Shown here piece after piece: positions 19,145 to 24,218 of a stretch of DNA of 26,673 nucleotides. The first letter of the stretch is position 1, and each line of letters starts with the position of its first letter. The notes under the pieces were generated by a model, which searched no databases, was not told the origin of the DNA, and saw nothing but the letters and a program-made list of their open reading frames with translations. Origin of the DNA: a phage; the NCBI GenBank assembly GCA_014436445.1, contig GCA_014436445.1_4089.1; one strand, 5' to 3'. The position numbers and the translations under genes are program-made.

Positions 19145-19332
19145 TACTACATAGACGCGAGAAAGCGGATACCCCTGGGGGTGCGGAATTACGCCCAAAA
19201 TTCAGTAAATTTAAAAAGGATACACTCCCGCACCTTAGCAGGTCATAGCACTTTCTCAGTACTGAATCATAGTACCATAGTACGCCCCAGGATGGCAAGC
19301 AAATTAATTAAAACTTTTTGCGTTTAGGGTAT

Positions 19333-19360
19333 TGCTTTATTTTTTCAGTACTGCTATAAT
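19333..19360 (+). promoter_or_regulatory. plus-strand promoter (TTGCTT, 16 nt, TATAAT)
   Basis: Followed by GAGAAAGACTCTAGCCCACCGGGTGCATAA, i.e. the same leader motif as at 15552. Confidence 0.45.
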
Positions 19361-19457
19361 ATTTTCATCAAGTCGAGAAAGACTCTAGCCCACCGGGTGC
19401 ATAATTGTATCTAAAATTCAGTACTAGATTATTTTTTAAAATTATTCATCCAGGCGG

Positions 19458-19486
19458 TTGACATTGCCCCCAGTTTATTAGATAAT
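19458..19486 (+). promoter_or_regulatory. plus-strand promoter (TTGACA, 17 nt, GATAAT) reading toward the iteron array
   Basis: Consensus elements; downstream lie a GGGGAAACCATCCCC hairpin and the iteron-like array. Confidence 0.45.
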
Positions 19487-19580
19487 GATTCCAGATTCAG
19501 AAAAATCTAACTCCAGATACTGCGGGGAAACCATCCCCACGCGGTAGGGGAACTATTGGAAAAACAAAATAAAATTTTGA

Positions 19581-19712
19581 TTTAGCCGTCTATACTTCCA
19601 GACGTGTAACCATCTAGCCGTTTAGCCGTCCAAACGTCTAGCAGTACAGCCATCTAGAAATCTAGCCATCCAGCCGCCTAGAGGGATAGCCATCTTTACT
19701 TCCAGCCATCTG
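19581..19712. repeat. iteron-like array of about 8 YAGCCRTC octamers with interspersed GTCTAG/CATCTAG
   Basis: TTTAGCCGTC occurs exactly twice (19581, 19621); TAGCCGTT, CAGCCATC, TAGCCATC (twice), CAGCCGCC and CAGCCATC follow within about 130 bp of non-coding DNA. Confidence 0.55.
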
Positions 19713-19881
19713 GAGGTCTAGACATCTCTACGTCTAAATTTAACCTAGGGTTACTACGCCCAAAATCCGTCAGTACTATACCATAGATCTATCTTTAAGA
19801 AGGGAGTATTCAGTACTCCCACAATAGCCCTCACTGTTACTGTAGGAGGATGAAGACTATCATGTAGTACTGAATACTGTT

Positions 19882-19911
19882 AGTGGATAATCCACCAGCT
19901 TGTGCTGGTGG
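19882..19911. promoter_or_regulatory. DnaA-box-like 9-mer inside palindrome TGGATAATCCA, followed by hairpin CCACCAGCTTGTGCTGGTGG
   Basis: AGTGGATAA matches the DnaA box (TGTGGATAA, the complement of TTATCCACA) at 8 of 9 positions; an 8-bp-stem hairpin lies immediately 3'. Confidence 0.3.
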
Positions 19912-20398
19912 CATAATGCGTTAGATTAATATCAGTACTGCTACCATTCTGTTAATAACAGTACTGTTCATATTACGAAAAAAGAGGTTATAAAAAGATG
20001 TACCACCCATAGGAGGAACTATCCTTTCAGTACTGTCTCACGACAGGAGGTAGAGTGAATGAATTGTTTGCGGCAACTCATCTCTCTATGTAGAACATTA
20101 TACAGTACTGAATCATAATGTCAATAGCTTTCTTTCATTATTCAGTACTGAAATCGTATAATCTGTATCGCTACAAAACTCATTATATCCCACAAATCCT
20201 ATATGTCCCAACGTAAATTTCAACTTTCGAAGATCCAACTTTTATTTCATAGGTACTCCAAAATTTTTAGGATCGAGATTTAGGATGGAGTACTAACCAA
20301 CTTTTTGCTGGAGCCTCAAGGGGTAATTGAATTTTACCCCGAAGGGTAAAGGGGTAATTGAAATTAAGGTGAAAGTAATAATTCAGTACTAATCATTG

Positions 20399-20628
20399 CG
20401 TGATTACTTTTGATTACATTTGATGTAATTTGCAAAATGGAAAAGGAGCTTGGAAACTACAAAGTACGGCAGACTTCCTCTGCCTACTTAGTGGCATATC
20501 AGTACTGCTACGTTCTTGATTAAACGTGAACATTCCTGTACTCTAGTACTCAATACTAATCACTACCGTGCGTATGAATGATTACATAAATGTTTATATA
20601 TGATTACTTATGACTACCTATGATTACG
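20399..20628. repeat. two clusters of helically phased (A)TGATTAC repeats (20399-20428 and 20578-20628)
   Basis: GATTAC at 20401 and 20411 plus GATGTAAT at 20421; ATGATTAC at 20578, 20601 and 20621 plus ATGACTAC at 20611, with 10-bp spacing in the second cluster. Confidence 0.5.
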
Positions 20629-20743
20629 GGGTTTAGCCTGGGGAGAATCCTAGTGATCGCATTTGTCCAGGCTGAATTTTAACATATGCAACATATGTTA
20701 AAGCCTGTATAATGCTTCCACTACGGAGCTTCCCCTAGCTATA

Positions 20744-20944
20744 TTACTTCCTATATATAATCATTAAGATATAGTAGTACTGATTGTACTGTACATTCTC
20801 TTTAATATTATAAGGGTCTATAGCAATCTCGGTACATCTGTTAAATGCATATCTATTAAATGCCAGTGGAATTATAGATCTAATCCATACTTGTTCATTT
20901 TCTTTTAGTTTACTTATATAGAATTCTTTATGTTCTTTATTCAT
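20744..20944 (-). CDS. small-protein paralog array, member 15 (66 aa)
   Basis: Track ORF; N-terminus MNKEHKEFY, central Cys motif (NRCTEIAI), C-terminus YYILMIIYRK. Confidence 0.6.
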   Translation of the reverse strand: MNKEHKEFYISKLKENEQVWIRSIIPLAFNRYAFNRCTEIAIDPYNIKENVQYNQYYYILMIIYRK

Positions 20945-20949
20945 ATTAG

Positions 20950-21135
20950 TTAGTGTCTGTATATAAGTAATAGTAAGAATACGTACTGCACATCTTCATC
21001 TTTAGTATTGAGTACTGTACGTATTGCGTCATTAAACAAGAATATAGTACTTGGGTCATGAGAATTTAAAGGGGTTCTGGGTACGGCATGTTTGTAGTTC
21101 CCTTTAACAAATTGTGTGTAGTATTCTCTATGCAT
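20950..21135 (-). CDS. small-protein paralog array, member 14 (61 aa)
   Basis: Track ORF; MHREYYTQF...LLLLIYRH. Confidence 0.6.
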   Translation of the reverse strand: MHREYYTQFVKGNYKHAVPRTPLNSHDPSTIFLFNDAIRTVLNTKDEDVQYVFLLLLIYRH

Positions 21136-21136
21136 A

Positions 21137-21322
21137 TTAGTACCTATATATTAGGGCGAGAATGTAGTACAATTCATATGGAATGTAATTTGGGGTGATC
21201 GCACACTGTGTATGGTAAATGAATTGTTCGGTATTTTTCTTATCCTTGATATCTATTGGGATTTGTGGTATAAGCATTTGGGAGTTTAGATCGAGATGGC
21301 TTAAGTAGAATTCTTTATGCAT
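21137..21322 (-). CDS. small-protein paralog array, member 13 (61 aa)
   Basis: Track ORF; MHKEFYLSHL...QCAI...YYILALIYRY. Confidence 0.6.
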   Translation of the reverse strand: MHKEFYLSHLDLNSQMLIPQIPIDIKDKKNTEQFIYHTQCAITPNYIPYELYYILALIYRY

Positions 21323-21331
21323 ATTGTTCTC

Positions 21332-21520
21332 TTAGAATACGAAAGCTAGGTACAGGGTATGATACAGTACTCGATGATAGCTGTCAAAATCTAGTATACA
21401 TGCTTTAGTGCACATAGTAAAGTACACTTTATCATTTTGTGCATTGATACCGCGAGGTTTATCTAATAGATTAGTTCTGAGGTACATTGGGAAATATTTT
21501 GTGTAGTATTCTTTATGCAT
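21332..21520 (-). CDS. small-protein paralog array, member 12 (62 aa)
   Basis: Track ORF 21332..21565 trimmed to the family-conserved start MHKEYYTKYF at 21520; ends ...YHTLYLAFVF. Confidence 0.6.
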   Translation of the reverse strand: MHKEYYTKYFPMYLRTNLLDKPRGINAQNDKVYFTMCTKACILDFDSYHRVLYHTLYLAFVF

Positions 21521-21521
21521 G

Positions 21522-21704
21522 TTAGTACCTGAATATAAGTAGGATAGTGTTATATAGCTGGTCATAACTACTACTATTTTCTATACTTCGTTCTATGCAG
21601 TTATTGAATCCCAGTACTGCCAAATCGTTATCCATAGGGACTTTATATCTGGCGTAGTGTTCAAAAATGCTGGGGAGAAATTGTGTGTAGTATTCTTTGT
21701 GCAT
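21522..21704 (-). CDS. small-protein paralog array, member 11 (60 aa)
   Basis: Track ORF; MHKEYYTQFLP...NNCIERSI...ILLIFRY. Confidence 0.6.
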   Translation of the reverse strand: MHKEYYTQFLPSIFEHYARYKVPMDNDLAVLGFNNCIERSIENSSSYDQLYNTILLIFRY

Positions 21705-21705
21705 A

Positions 21706-21891
21706 TTAGTACCTATATATTAGTAAAAGGATGTGATACAGTACTCGATTATAGTCGTCAATATATATCGAGGATTTAGTGCACTGAATGAAGTAGTCTT
21801 TTTCGTAGTTTTTTTCTATACCCAATGGTTCTGTTGGTACAAGGTGTTGGAGATACATTGGGAGTTTCTCTATGTAGTATTCTTTATACAT
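21706..21891 (-). CDS. small-protein paralog array, member 10 (61 aa)
   Basis: Track ORF; MYKEYYIEKLPMYLQ...QCTKSSI...YHILLLIYRY. Confidence 0.6.
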   Translation of the reverse strand: MYKEYYIEKLPMYLQHLVPTEPLGIEKNYEKDYFIQCTKSSIYIDDYNRVLYHILLLIYRY

Positions 21892-21900
21892 ATATTATCC

Positions 21901-22101
21901 TTAGTACTGGAACGCAAGGTACAGGGTGTGGTAAAGTTGTACTTGATAATTGTTTTCATTAGCTTCTTCATTAAGTACTTGTTCAGTACATGTACGGAAG
22001 TAATCAGCTTCATATATACAGTCAATACCGCGAGGTTCATCTTCTAATAGATTTCCTTGTAGAAACTTTGGTAGTTCTTTTATGTAGAATTCTTTATACA
22101 T
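21901..22101 (-). CDS. small-protein paralog array, member 9 (66 aa)
   Basis: Track ORF 21901..22164 trimmed to the family-conserved start MYKEFYIKELPKFLQ at 22101; ...RTCTEQVL...YHTLYLAFQY. Confidence 0.6.
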   Translation of the reverse strand: MYKEFYIKELPKFLQGNLLEDEPRGIDCIYEADYFRTCTEQVLNEEANENNYQVQLYHTLYLAFQY

Positions 22102-22765
22102 AGTTTGTAATATACGTAATGAGGTGATGCATTTTCTTATCAGTACTGATAATTTCCTGTACATGTTTTGTCAGATTGTACGCGTTTTTATAGAGTACTG
22201 GATTATCGATTACAGTACTGTACATGAATAGTTCTTCTTCCTGTAGTTCTTTGTGTTCTAGTTCTTTGAGGAATTGTAGTACTGTATCAGTTTCTTCTGT
22301 ACGTTGTGCTTGCCAGAAGTGCATATTCTCGTGTACTTTTTCTGCATCAGTAGAGTATATGCCACCCATTTGGAATTGTGCTGTATTGACATCGTGGGAG
22401 GTGTTACAATTCCCGAAGAAGTATGTATTCCCGAAGTATAGCATTAAAGTGCACGGGGTATTATCCAACTGCATATTGATGATGAAGGATGCGTTCTTTA
22501 GTACCTTTGTGCTCGTATTAGTACTCAATACTTTTAAATCAGTATTATAGATATTCATATAATGAACAGCTATATTATTTTTCTTCATGTACAATTCAAG
22601 GTTCTTTGATACGTTAACTCCATTTGTACTGGATTTTTCCTTTTTATTTCGTTTCTTTAGTACATTCGGGTGATACGTATATGCAGATGTAACTGATTCT
22701 GCCTGAATACTATTGAGGTACTTAAAGTGCTTAAGGTATTGTTTGCTGTGTGCATTAAGTTTCAT
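22094..22765 (-). CDS. 223-aa protein with an HExxH motif, embedded in the paralog array
   Basis: Track ORF; AAGGAAA Shine-Dalgarno; contains AEKVHENMHFWQA (HExxH, the zincin metallopeptidase signature); does not share the array-family termini. Confidence 0.55.
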   Translation of the reverse strand: MKLNAHSKQYLKHFKYLNSIQAESVTSAYTYHPNVLKKRNKKEKSSTNGVNVSKNLELYMKKNNIAVHYMNIYNTDLKVLSTNTSTKVLKNASFIINMQLDNTPCTLMLYFGNTYFFGNCNTSHDVNTAQFQMGGIYSTDAEKVHENMHFWQAQRTEETDTVLQFLKELEHKELQEEELFMYSTVIDNPVLYKNAYNLTKHVQEIISTDKKMHHLITYITNYV

Positions 22766-22775
22766 TTGGTTTCCT

Positions 22776-22955
22776 TTATATAGATGCCAGGGCGAGGATT
22801 TCCCTGTAGGGATTATCTTGTGTTAGTACAGCATAAATGCAGTTATTGAGATTAATATTTTTAGTACTTTTTGTTCCTAGTTTGTAGTACTTCACGAAGG
22901 TGTCGTACATGAAACGGTCTTTTATGGTTATACGTTCTCTATAGAATTGTTGCAT
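22776..22955 (-). CDS. small-protein paralog array, member 7 (59 aa; MQQFYRERITIKDRFMYDTFVKYYKLGTKSTKNINLNNCIYAVLTQDNPYREILALASI)
   Basis: Not in the track (59 aa). AAGGAA Shine-Dalgarno; central NNCIYAVL and C-terminal ILALASI fit the family. Confidence 0.5.
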   Translation of the reverse strand: MQQFYRERITIKDRFMYDTFVKYYKLGTKSTKNINLNNCIYAVLTQDNPYREILALASI

Positions 22956-22963
22956 AGTATTCC

Positions 22964-23146
22964 TTAAATAGCGATTAGTTTCATTACTTCTCTGTATGTG
23001 TACTTTTCGTTTTGTGCATCTCTTGTGACGACATATAGGAAGGTGTGTTTATCTTTTTTGTTCCCGCAATTGTAGAAAATATTGAACTTATTGAAGTTGA
23101 ATCTTTCGGCGTGTTGTAGTTTAGTTAAATAGAATTCTATATTCAT
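22964..23146 (-). CDS. small-protein paralog array, member 6 (60 aa)
   Basis: Track ORF; MNIEFYLTKL...YNCGN...MKLIAI. Confidence 0.55.
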   Translation of the reverse strand: MNIEFYLTKLQHAERFNFNKFNIFYNCGNKKDKHTFLYVVTRDAQNEKYTYREVMKLIAI

Positions 23147-23154
23147 TTTCTTCC

Positions 23155-23340
23155 TTACATTTCAATAAGTTTAAGTACTGCTCGGTACGTGTACTTAGTT
23201 GTTAGTGCTTCTTTAATAGAAATACAGAAGTAATGTTGTTTGTCTCTTATACTGCCGCGTTTGTAGTACCACACATGGGAGTTGTGACTGTACTTGTCTC
23301 TGTCGGATAGTTGTTGGTAGTAGTAGCTTATATGATTCAT
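23155..23340 (-). CDS. small-protein paralog array, member 5 (61 aa)
   Basis: Track ORF; MNHISYYYQQL...FCISIKEAL...LKLIEM. Confidence 0.55.
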   Translation of the reverse strand: MNHISYYYQQLSDRDKYSHNSHVWYYKRGSIRDKQHYFCISIKEALTTKYTYRAVLKLIEM

Positions 23341-23392
23341 TATAATGTAATTAGCCTTACTATATTAAAGTACTCGGTCCCTGGTGTACCTT

Positions 23393-23587
23393 TTAGAACT
23401 TAAAGATGAGGTTCAGGATAGAGCGGTACTTAGTTGCAGGGAACGTATGTTCTATTGCATAACGTGTCACCATCCTGAAATCGTAATTATAATACAGATT
23501 ATCCTTTCTCATAGGTGGTGCTAAAGAGAATGATAGCTGTTCTTGTTTGGGTAGTTTACTACAATAGAAATCTTTATGATTATTCAT
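23393..23587 (-). CDS. small-protein paralog array, member 4 (64 aa)
   Basis: Track ORF; MNNHKDFYCSKLPKQEQ...ILNLIFKF. Confidence 0.55.
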   Translation of the reverse strand: MNNHKDFYCSKLPKQEQLSFSLAPPMRKDNLYYNYDFRMVTRYAIEHTFPATKYRSILNLIFKF

Positions 23588-23789
23588 AGAAATATATTAG
23601 TCCTATTAAACCAGAGTACATAATATTTTTGTTATTACATTCGATTGCTTCTAGAGTACTACGTATACAATTATTAAAGCAATCTCTGGCGTGTGGTGTA
23701 TCTATACTTAAAGGTGATACACTCCTTAGAAACAATTGTTCTTCGTTGCTAAGGTATTTGGTGTAGAATTCTTTATGTTCAGTATTCAT
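23580..23789 (-). CDS. small-protein paralog array, member 3 (69 aa)
   Basis: Track ORF; MNTEHKEFYTKYLSNEEQ...NNCIRSTL...LIGLIYFYE; 8-nt overlap with member 4. Confidence 0.6.
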   Translation of the reverse strand: MNTEHKEFYTKYLSNEEQLFLRSVSPLSIDTPHARDCFNNCIRSTLEAIECNNKNIMYSGLIGLIYFYE

Positions 23790-23790
23790 A

Positions 23791-23994
23791 TTAGTACTCG
23801 ATTAAAAGGGCAAGGATATAATAGTATTGCATACTTTCTGCCCCTTGTAAAGCATTTCTTATGATATTATTCCTGTACGAGTTCAGGAGTTTAGGACAAC
23901 GTTTGTAGTGTATAATAGTATTTTGTGTATACAGTAGGCTTTCTCGTAGACCTTTTGTTGGTAGTGCATCGATGTAGTACTGTTCGATATTCAT
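23791..23994 (-). CDS. small-protein paralog array, member 2 (67 aa)
   Basis: Track ORF; MNIEQYYIDALP...YYILALLIEY. Confidence 0.6.
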   Translation of the reverse strand: MNIEQYYIDALPTKGLRESLLYTQNTIIHYKRCPKLLNSYRNNIIRNALQGAESMQYYYILALLIEY

Positions 23995-24218
23995 ATAGAT
24001 AGCAGTACTAAGATTTTTGATAATTGTTTATTGCTATCCCCGCAGATGTTGCTGTGTAAAATACTCACAATGAGGGTATCAATTGCATTGTTCATCATAA
24101 GGGTGCATCCTGGACTATTATAATTTTTTAGCTCAATTAGCCACGAACTATCCGAGAGAAACTCCCCGTACTCTAGTTCATTTAGAGTATTGAGGTAGTA
24201 CTTAAGAGTATTTGTCAT
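23991..24218 (-). CDS. small-protein paralog array, member 1 (75 aa), first gene after the array promoter
   Basis: Track ORF; AAGGAG Shine-Dalgarno; MTNTLKYYLNTL...PGCTLMMNNAI...ILVLLSI. Confidence 0.55.
   Translation of the reverse strand: MTNTLKYYLNTLNELEYGEFLSDSSWLIELKNYNSPGCTLMMNNAIDTLIVSILHSNICGDSNKQLSKILVLLSI

Follow-up and report, generated by a model that had tools for sequence, protein, structure and literature searches.

Phased TGATTAC arrays on either side of the inner direct-terminal-repeat boundary of an Asteriusvirus jumbo phage: a putative terminus-recognition region

What are two clusters of a 7-bp motif, each repeated at close to the pitch of the double helix, doing in the non-coding DNA of a phage? 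The clusters in question, built from the motif TGATTAC, lie around positions 20399-20628 of contig GCA_014436445.1_4089.1 (NCBI GenBank assembly GCA_014436445.1), a stretch of 26,673 nucleotides that we call the window. An earlier note on the same letters had described them as phased GATTAC repeats typical of a cooperative protein-binding array, situated between an 'iteron array' and an array of paralogous genes. That context proved inadequate, as it left unrecognised a boundary that falls between the two clusters. The window derives from an Asteriusvirus jumbo phage of the 121Q/PBECO4/G17 group with a direct terminal repeat (DTR) of ~20.7 kb. A BLAST search with 19300-21300 against a phage collection returned 37 records, all of them Escherichia or Salmonella Asteriusvirus (121Q, PBECO4, G17, slurp01 and others) at 86-94% identity, and a shorter query gave 99.6% identity to vB_Eco_slurp01. 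The right boundary of the DTR, which is a physical terminus of the genome, is at 20488/20489 (here and below a slash marks a boundary or cut). We tentatively read the TGATTAC arrays as the two arms of a bipartite, helically phased, putative protein-recognition region that positions the terminus cut. The features on which this reading is built are as follows.

20390-20431, plus strand: cluster 1, within the DTR at 61-88 bp from the cut, TAATCA-N5-TGATTAC-N3-TGATTAC-N3-TGATGTAAT
20488/20489, no strand: physical terminus and right DTR boundary, lying between the clusters, ...GGCAGACTTCCTCTGCCTACT/TAGTGGCATATC...
20579-20585, plus strand: outlying TGATTAC unit, preceding the core of cluster 2 by 22 bp
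20600-20628, plus strand: core of cluster 2, 112-140 bp beyond the cut and so outside the DTR, ATGATTACtt ATGACTACct ATGATTACg with period 10
245/246, no strand: left DTR boundary, ...gtcgCTA/AGGttacccgcc, where G17 position 1 equals window position 246

Cluster 1 reads gTGATTACtttTGATTACattTGATGTAAT. Its exact TGATTAC units start at 20401 and 20411, and the third unit, starting at 20421, is degenerate (TGATGTAAT). GATTAC does not run through the whole of this cluster as had been supposed, the third unit being instead an inverted ATTACA/TGTAAT partner. Cluster 2 has TGATTAC at 20579, 20601 and 20621 and TGACTAC at 20611; the last three positions, previously listed for a longer unit, hold for the T of TGATTAC, while ATGATTAC begins one base earlier. 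The whole locus has five exact same-strand copies of TGATTAC in 230 bp, together with two degenerate units. Inside each cluster the unit period is exactly 10 bp, in keeping with the spacing of 10-11 bp first described, which does not extend to the 22-bp step from 20579 to 20601. With a helical repeat of 10.5 bp per turn, the seven units all share one phase (resultant 0.96), and Tandem Repeats Finder (TRF) assigns period 10 to both arrays, with scores of 41 and 44. Any 7-mer with five non-overlapping copies on one strand within 230 bp appeared in 1 of 500 dinucleotide-preserving shuffles of the window, and in the real window this density is reached by TGATTAC and the AGTACTG family only. The sequence, the TRF period, the phase resultant and the shuffles together confirm the two helically phased clusters. 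Taken alone, either cluster has a TRF score comparable to those of a dozen other two-copy arrays in the window, and GATTAC is not enriched across the window as a whole (20 observed, 17.3 expected), so the signal is one of clustering. What is exceptional about the arrays is their common unit, strand, phase, position and conservation, not the tandem-repeat score of a single cluster.

The two clusters differ in their internal design. Cluster 1 consists of two 6-N5-6 dyads (TAATCA-N5-TGATTA and ATTACA-N5-TGTAAT) that overlap the direct repeats of 10-bp period, and as DNA it folds with z = -3.8. Its T-tracts are themselves phased at 10-11 bp, with an A/T-tract periodicity in the top 0.3-0.5% of the window (99.5th-99.7th percentile), from which intrinsic bending is predicted. 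No open reading frame (ORF) of at least 40 aa runs over the clusters. A coding role was considered and rejected: the overlapping ORFs of 20-39 aa, found on both strands, show no conservation logic and are annotated in UE-S1 and not in other records.

Is the arrangement found elsewhere in the genome? The rest of the window holds seven lone, scattered TGATTAC sites. For the whole genome we scanned a composite of the window, G17 positions 1-80 kb and 340.8-350.1 kb, and ECO103 4-12-1 positions 1-300 kb, with the tiling checked by BLAST. Same-strand TGATTAC pairs at most 40 bp apart are confined to the locus, except for two isolated pairs whose spacings of 18 and 16 bp are non-helical, and the scan found no TGATTAC triple within 250 bp outside it. 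This motif scan, which had been proposed as a check, shows the array to be unique to the locus in the composite Asteriusvirus genome, as would be expected of a terminase recognition region. Coding DNA in the same scan nowhere repeats the motif with equal density and phasing, the observation that the earlier note had named as a refutation.

The terminus is known to the base. The linear G17 record (370,817 bp) has positions 1-20668 identical to 350150-370817 with zero mismatches, which amounts to an exact DTR of 20,668 bp, and its end coincides with window position 20488. Records start or end exactly at 20488/20489 in eight genomes (G17, fEgEco12, vB_Ec-M-J, BF17, WPEC3, WPEC5, CRJP21 and E9.1). 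The termini of fEgEco12 were established by PhageTerm and restriction digests, giving a DTR of 20,993 bp (PMC13070987), those of Sharanji by PhageTerm, giving 20,668 bp (PMC11895373), and those of G17 from coverage (PMC6563267); for vB_Ec-M-J a DTR of 21,525 bp is annotated. Terminus determinations of their own are stated for fEgEco12, Sharanji, vB_Ec-M-J and the Klebsiella phage fENko-Kae01. Read data underlie the termini of at least four relatives, and the published determinations agree with the boundary given here. The DTR lengths of fEgEco12 and vB_Ec-M-J place the left boundary at 245/246, within 1 base. The window holds one whole DTR copy (246-20488), with the arrays at its inner boundary, and the ends are exact, non-permuted DTRs. 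Measured from one physical end of the virion DNA, cluster 1 lies at 61-88 bp. Cluster 2, counted with its outlying unit, lies 91-140 bp beyond the cut, in unique DNA to which the repeat is joined only at its internal copy or within a concatemer. With the terminus between its clusters, the locus has the position of a terminase recognition and cleavage region of a DTR phage, which holds or adjoins the site where ends are generated.

Conservation was followed in 12 Asteriusvirus genomes, which are close relatives, so that their spacer lengths are not independent. Three further segments enter at this point.

20457-20494, no strand: imperfect palindrome, CTAC-AAGTA-GGCAGA(cttcc)TCTGCC-TACTT-GTGG, with the cut within its 3' arm
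20495-20578, no strand: hypervariable spacer on the unique side, with AGTACT sites and 10-bp units ACTCTAGTAC of varying copy number
20629-20684, no strand: conserved block after cluster 2, with hairpin AGCCTGG-N25-CCAGGCT, downstream of the codon at 20744 where the last paralog gene stops

Mean pairwise identity is 92.7% in cluster 1, 90.4% over the palindrome and cut, 94.1% in the cluster 2 core and 94.7% in the block 20629-20684. Elsewhere it is 69% in the spacer (with 151 inserted alignment columns), 63% in 20685-20743 and 79% in 20295-20382. In both clusters unit 1 is preserved in every one of the 12 genomes; unit 3 of cluster 2 is intact in 10. The outlying unit at 20579 is exact in the window phage, 121Q, BF17, UE-S1, A4, CMSTMSU and TH47 and reads TGATTAT in Turkey5. 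In A4, the most divergent genome, TGATT is kept at period 10 despite a strongly diverged linker beside cluster 1. Ten of the 12 genomes place cluster 1 at 88 bp from the cut, and the distances from cluster 1 to cluster 2 are 200, 210, 210, 340, 210, 241, 230, 219, 253, 240, 210 and 250 bp. These equal 0, +1 or -1 modulo 10 in 11 of the 12 genomes, or in 8 of 9 distinct lengths, for which a uniform modulo-10 model gives a probability of about 4e-4. Spacing near multiples of 10 is what a same-face constraint predicts, and we regard this agreement as suggestive only.

The spacer also differs in its repeated units between genomes. Relative to the window, slurp01 (99.6% identical nearby) is longer by ~130 bp of duplicated AGTACTGAATCATTCACACACATTTCCGTGCATTCTTGAGCAATCTTGTCTATACTAATC units directly beyond the terminus, at window 20499/20500, and other genomes vary at the same place by 10-bp ACTCTAGTAC units. 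A scan of IMG/VR for the 19-mer at the terminus matched the 121Q genome only, so this collection adds no Asteriusvirus diversity; a scan for TGATTACNNNTGATTAC matched more than 120 unrelated contigs, the chance level for 14 specified bases.

How might such a region work? On the reading that we prefer, the units would be bound cooperatively, along a single helical face, by a protein that recognises a specific DNA sequence. Most likely this would be the small subunit of the terminase or an accessory protein of packaging or end processing. Cluster 1 would offer it two dyads and direct repeats on bent T-tract DNA, and cluster 2 three or four direct repeats. The arrays, about 19-24 helical turns apart and separated by near-integral numbers of turns, would be brought together by looping and would set the palindrome between them in a defined geometry. 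A nuclease would then cut after ...CTGCCTACT, which would give the arrays a causal part in cleavage. This reading draws on the base-exact terminus in eight genomes, the fixed 88-bp offset, the uniqueness of the arrays, the conserved blocks and the phase of the spacer. It draws also on the periodic TGATT of A4, the phased T-tracts, the position of the cut in a conserved palindrome, precedents in P1, SPP1 and T5, and a period-10 array in the jumbo phage L154, all taken up below. The cooperative binding array first proposed fits the phasing, the genome-wide uniqueness, the conservation in 12 relatives and the variable spacer; binding itself we infer from these features of the sequence. Early phage proteins, then suggested as binders, are one possibility, while the position of the locus points first to the packaging or terminus-processing machinery.

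There are precedents for repeats on both sides of a packaging cut. In the pac site of P1, two blocks of hexamers, HEX4 and HEX3 (TGATCA/G, 6 bp, in four and three copies), flank the cleavage site within about 160 bp; the hexamers are bound by PacA/PacB, and bending proteins shape the DNA between the blocks (PMC10028697). Similarly, at the present locus 3-4 plus 3-4 copies of a 7-bp motif flank the cut within about 230 bp, forming two short-motif blocks 61-88 bp inside and 91-140 bp outside, and cluster 1 is predicted to be bent. The differences are substantial. P1 is a headful phage with permuted, terminally redundant ends, whereas here the ends are exact and the DTR spans 20.7 kb. The P1 hexamers carry GATC under Dam methylation control, whereas neither cluster here has a GATC. 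The P1 site lies inside the pacA gene, whereas the present locus is non-coding, with no IHF consensus site and no sequence similarity. With exact ends, and with neither GATC/Dam sites nor an IHF consensus, the locus is not a member of the P1 pac family. In SPP1, the direct repeats of pacL and pacR (boxes A, B and C) flank the cleavage region pacC, and the proposal there is that the small terminase picks out a segment with an intrinsic bend and binds repeatedly at regular spacing (PMC4737164). The likeness lies in repeats on both sides of the cut and in a cluster 1 that combines phased T-tracts with units spaced by 10 bp, the binding here being predicted only. SPP1, however, is a headful phage whose pac overlaps the promoter and 5' end of a terminase gene, and no terminase gene is adjacent here.

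The closest overall architecture and genome organisation is that of T5, also a coliphage with a long exact DTR, small early genes directed toward the genome end and an untranslated repeat region of more than 1 kb straddling that end. In T5 the left terminal repeat (10,139 bp) has Repeat Region 3 at its inner end. According to the T5 annotation, the 15-bp direct repeat D (TGTGCAAATCCGACA) of this region has copies 2-6 within the terminal repeat, 244-421 bp from the end, and copies 7-9 beyond it, 86-270 bp from the end; a role in stopping injection has been proposed for the T5 repeats. The present locus shows the same layout, ORF-free from about 19300 to 20743 with TGATTAC on both sides of 20488. 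The T5 repeats differ in being 15 bp long, irregularly spaced at 25-137 bp and not helically phased, with no sequence similarity, and the paired DnaA boxes and large inverted repeats IRC/IRD of T5 were not found here.

Other comparisons are looser. T7 and T3 reportedly carry short-repeat arrays just internal to each terminal repetition, and are said to need both sides of the cut for packaging and to use a transcription pause site at the junction in processing. They resemble the present case in forming exact DTR ends by sequence-specific cutting of concatemers, with a terminator-like hairpin at the cut here; T7, however, has a repeat of 160 bp, as against 20.7 kb, and uses a phage RNA polymerase. 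In lambda, cosB comprises the small-terminase sites R3-I1-R2-R1 and a bend beside the nicking site cosN. The arrays beside the cut recall these repeated sites, but the lambda sites stand on one side only, the cohesive ends are of 12 nt, and the motifs and spacing are others. In Twort-like myoviruses, which have a long DTR (~8 kb), short conserved sequences mark the boundaries (PMC7596081). A comparable mark here is the triplet CTA just outside the DTR at both boundaries, in the window phage and in fENko-Kae01, although the inverted symmetry covers 3-5 bases, not 12, and TGATTAC forms direct repeats at one boundary only. By analogy, then, the locus would resemble a pac- or cos-type recognition region in its working and the repeat region at the terminal-repeat end of T5 in its layout.

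Several observations weigh against the arrays as terminus-positioning elements. First, conservation covers two whole blocks, each with a cluster, rather than the units alone. Second, the units are not all maintained. The middle unit of cluster 2 varies (GACTAC, GATTAC, GCGTAC), and the unit at 20579 is replaced in G17, slurp01, PBECO4 and phAPEC6, a loss in four genomes that makes it dispensable or accessory. In UE-S1 and TH47 a 30-bp hairpin insertion splits unit 3 of cluster 2 (window 20624/20625). Third, indels in multiples of 10 bp could also come from slippage of 10-bp units, and some of the deposited records may follow the G17 orientation by analogy and not by independent mapping. Fourth, the left boundary at 245/246, which also needs to be cut or defined, has no TGATTAC array, and the k-mers that it shares with the right boundary are at background level. 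In the literature searched, we found no published binding, footprint or packaging assays for Asteriusvirus. Finally, fENko-Kae01 shares the cut-site context and a conserved element, CE1, but lacks TGATTAC arrays, which argues that recognition across genera is more likely to proceed through CE1, the hairpin and the bases at the cut. The arrays would then more likely be lineage-specific accessories at best.

The insertion in UE-S1 and TH47 is a perfect-stem hairpin, CAAAGAGAAGC-loop-GCTTCTCTGTAGAG, and could be a tiny mobile palindromic insertion.

The comparison with other genera brings out what is shared more deeply. In fENko-Kae01, whose DTR is 19,736 bp by PhageTerm, the equivalent end reads ...ATCTTCT(tatacag)AGAAGATa/TAGCGG, so that a hairpin of another sequence abuts the cut and the bases that follow it, TAGYGG, are common to both phages. 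CE1 lies about 90-130 bp inside the fENko-Kae01 cut, and AGTACT occurs twice at 10-bp spacing, 25-44 bp inside it. The same arrangement of a hairpin and then /TAGCGG, with CE1 present, is found in L154 (IMGVR_UViG_3300012988_000001), a 366-kb uncultivated jumbo phage of the fENko lineage; the cross-genus hairpin comparison comprises three sequences. L154 also has a period-10 array of its own, GTAGCTTACC in 3.5 copies, about 45-85 bp past the predicted terminus on the unique side, where fENko-Kae01 has one copy. From these sequences, the deeply conserved features are the cut-site context and CE1. Period-10 arrays near the boundary recur, but with lineage-specific motifs and labile copy number. 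CE1 and its counterparts are placed as follows.

20252-20294, no strand: CE1, inverted repeat GGTACTCC-N25-GGAGTACT including tandem TTTAGGATnGAG x2, ~195-235 bp inside the terminus
CE1 in other genera, by BLAST: fENko-Kae01 86-128; Munch 86-128; XbC2 54-120; Hallingskeid 20778-20820; EJP2

Across the 12 Asteriusvirus genomes 91% of the CE1 columns are invariant. It is the sole part of the region matched by BLAST in other genera, and it adjoins record starts or DTR ends there. CE1 (~43 nt, GGTACTCCAAAATTTTTAGGATCGAGATTTAGGATGGAGTACT) shows 82-95% identity, in BLAST matches of 43-74 nt, across several jumbo-phage genera. Its carriers are Klebsiella fENko-Kae01, Salmonella Munch, 7t3, SE_PL and PHA46, Xanthomonas XbC2, Erwinia Hallingskeid and E. 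coli EJP2, and its distance from the end is 54-128 bp in those records that begin with a terminus. As a candidate for a deeply conserved signal of the terminus or of packaging, CE1 ranks above the TGATTAC arrays.

The bases at the boundaries show a regularity of their own. Read toward the repeat, CTA is the triplet just outside the DTR at all four boundaries of the window phage and fENko-Kae01. The left boundary is gCTA/AGG in both genera (ggCTA/AGGca in fENko-Kae01), and the right boundary, in reverse complement, is CTA/AGT or CTA/TAT. This triplet may be a minimal cut-site rule. The idea of one protein reading identical arrays at both DTR ends was considered and rejected, as 8-10-mers are shared between the boundaries only at background level.

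A bolder version of our reading, which we think possible but doubtful, is that the arrays, the palindrome and CE1 together make up a terminus-defining signal of a new type, serving jumbo phages whose DTRs measure ~20 kb, in which the phased array would loop about 20 turns and the nuclease would cut at the base of an extruded or bent palindrome. A signal present at one DTR boundary only would mark the start or the end of packaging, and another rule would govern the opposite boundary. If this is true, the question of how very long exact terminal repeats arise and are duplicated becomes directly testable in an E. coli phage. How ends are recognised and duplicated in phages with very long exact repeats (T5, SPO1, Twort-like phages and ~350-kb jumbo phages) is poorly understood. 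For Asteriusvirus and Rak2-like jumbo phages, only the existence and length of the DTR had previously been reported, and a term search of the fEgEco12 (PMC13070987) and Sharanji (PMC11895373) reports found no description of sequence elements at the boundary. The candidate signal that the locus offers is compact, at about 450 bp, and its parts are CE1, an array of dyads and direct repeats predicted to be bent, the palindrome that holds the cut, a phase-preserving spacer and the second array. If the arrays are recognition elements, defined packaging substrates and jumbo-phage engineering would become possible, and the inconsistent genome starts that assemblers and annotators give in this group would be explained. 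If they are not, it is still established where the terminus stands with respect to the early genes, and that the so-called 'iterons' beside it consist of a word over-represented throughout the genome.

What else could the arrays be? The alternative that survives best, although we consider it unlikely, is that they are T5-like sites for regulation or control of DNA entry, not terminase sites, in an ORF-free, repeat-rich region of ~1.4 kb. An early phage or host protein would control passage of the DTR boundary, by pausing injection, by silencing transcription that reads through from the paralog array into the DTR, or by an early-to-middle switch. The layout matches that of T5, with a long DTR of small genes transcribed toward the genome end (bioRxiv 10.1101/866236) and a large untranslated repeat region straddling the DTR end (bioRxiv 10.1101/866236; T5 annotation), and a terminator-like hairpin stands at the boundary on the transcribed strand here. 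Two-step injection, however, is not known for these phages, and cluster 2, being outside the DTR, is missing from the virion-end copy. The 6-N5-6 dyads of cluster 1 resemble sites of dimeric helix-turn-helix regulators, and strong sigma-70-type promoters run leftward within the region (12/12 match at 20124-20097), yet neither the fixed distance to the cut nor the phase-preserving spacer is predicted. The proposed T5 stop signal is also missing: no consensus DnaA box (TTWTNCACA) occurs in 19300-20760, where two 8/9 matches lie at 19397 and 19883, and there is no IHF consensus site in the arrays. Within the clusters a promoter scan found no strong promoter-like sites; the only ones lie 270-390 bp inside the DTR.

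Host-factor sites were tried as an explanation of the arrays and set aside. The arrays contain no consensus IHF, GATC, DnaA or T4-late-promoter (TATAAATA) sites, which leaves host-factor explanations unsupported, and the sole GATC of 20300-20760 is at 20655.

A further, improbable explanation is that the arrays are a non-functional by-product of slippage or template switching at the DTR end, for example during repeat duplication or repair in replication or packaging, that persists among close relatives. Such events fit the surroundings: the 10-bp spacer units ACTCTAGTAC range from 1 to 3 copies among relatives, slurp01 has its ~130-bp duplication, GTAGCTTACC is present 3.5 times in L154 as against once in fENko-Kae01, two-copy repeats of period 8 to period 16 are frequent in the window (19 TRF rows), and units may be lost or interrupted. 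The clusters themselves behave otherwise, being among the best-conserved non-coding segments and constant in copy number, unlike the spacer, and A4 keeps its periodic TGATT in a diverged background. Local slippage also does not explain the same unit on the same strand on both sides of a cut, 200 bp apart.

It is very unlikely that the arrays are iteron-like elements of a replication origin at the DTR boundary. The region is AT-rich, repeat-rich and ORF-free, its flanking genes are all on the minus strand, and the cumulative GC skew has a minimum and a sign change at about 20,000-20,500; this change, however, falls where one gene family gives way to another and at the DTR boundary itself, which could account for it. 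An origin would be expected to have iterons of 17-22 bp beside an AT-rich unwinding element, with an initiator gene or DnaA boxes, and only the GC-skew inflection agrees. The units are of 7 bp at a 10-bp period and number only 3 + 4, the DnaA consensus is lacking from 19300-20760 as noted above, and there is no evident adjacent initiator gene, the neighbours being ~60-aa paralogs and small hypothetical genes. Just as poorly placed is the proposal that cluster 2 and the hairpin block form the 3' end or terminator of the leftward paralog transcript, or a small RNA, with cluster 1 as unrelated promoter-upstream DNA that shares the motif by coincidence, since the far better fold of minus-strand RNA 20600-20745 than of shuffles (-48.5 kcal/mol, z = -5.3), the paralog stop at 20744 and the high conservation of 20629-20684 are set against TGATTAC units that form an unpaired tail in that fold (as GUAAUCA), the lack of an Rfam family, and a match of motif, strand and phase with cluster 1 and a genome-wide uniqueness that it leaves unexplained.

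The palindrome at the cut, 20457-20494, folds much better than shuffles, with an RNA fold of -17.8 kcal/mol (z = -4.7) and a DNA fold of -8.7 (z = -3.5); on the minus strand it matches the pattern of an intrinsic terminator. Within Asteriusvirus the hairpin sequences are nearly identical, too alike for a test of covariation. No Rfam family was found in 19200-20800, where a permissive E-value gave two sub-threshold chance matches of 18.8 and 20.3 bits against gathering thresholds of 60-65.

The 'iteron array' reported next to the clusters does not hold up as such. It is made of AGTACT, a word over-represented throughout the phage genome, including promoter spacers and coding DNA, so that it does not qualify as a set of origin-type iterons. 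The window of 26.7 kb contains 153 copies of this palindrome (5.7 per kb), and the remainder of the genome has 1.7-2.9 per kb; the overall range is 1.7-5.9, against about 0.24 expected for a random hexamer. AGTACT is found in the spacers of promoters (TTGACA-N9-cAGTACTGTATAAT), in a second promoter type (AAAAAGTACTTGCA...TATAAT) and in coding DNA, and is dense in 19300-20560. The bias may reflect, for example, a binding site of a phage protein, a signal related to modification or restriction, or promoter architecture.

The surroundings of the locus have further features. Nearly all ORFs in 398-24218 are small, on the minus strand and annotated as hypothetical in G17 and 121Q. The interval 19300-20743 at the inner DTR end comprises about 1.4 kb without ORFs of at least 60 aa. 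Within it, a perfect minus-strand promoter of the sigma-70 type, TTGACA-16-TATAAT at 20124-20097, points leftward into the ORF-free 19300-20100, which holds hairpins and tandem 16/32-bp repeats (19647-19736). This stretch may give rise to an early non-coding RNA or may be a counterpart of the untranslated region of the T5 left terminal repeat. Directly outside the DTR, 20744-24218 holds about 15 tandem paralogs on the minus strand, encoding proteins of ~60 aa that are hypothetical in 121Q and G17. GC skew changes from negative to positive at the DTR boundary (~20000-20500), with both the flanking small DTR genes and the paralog array on the minus strand; a switch without a change of strand implies that the coding strand of the paralog array is unusually C-rich. 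Upstream of the first gene of that array, which starts at 24218, lies a promoter of the sigma-70 type (TTGACA...TACTAT).

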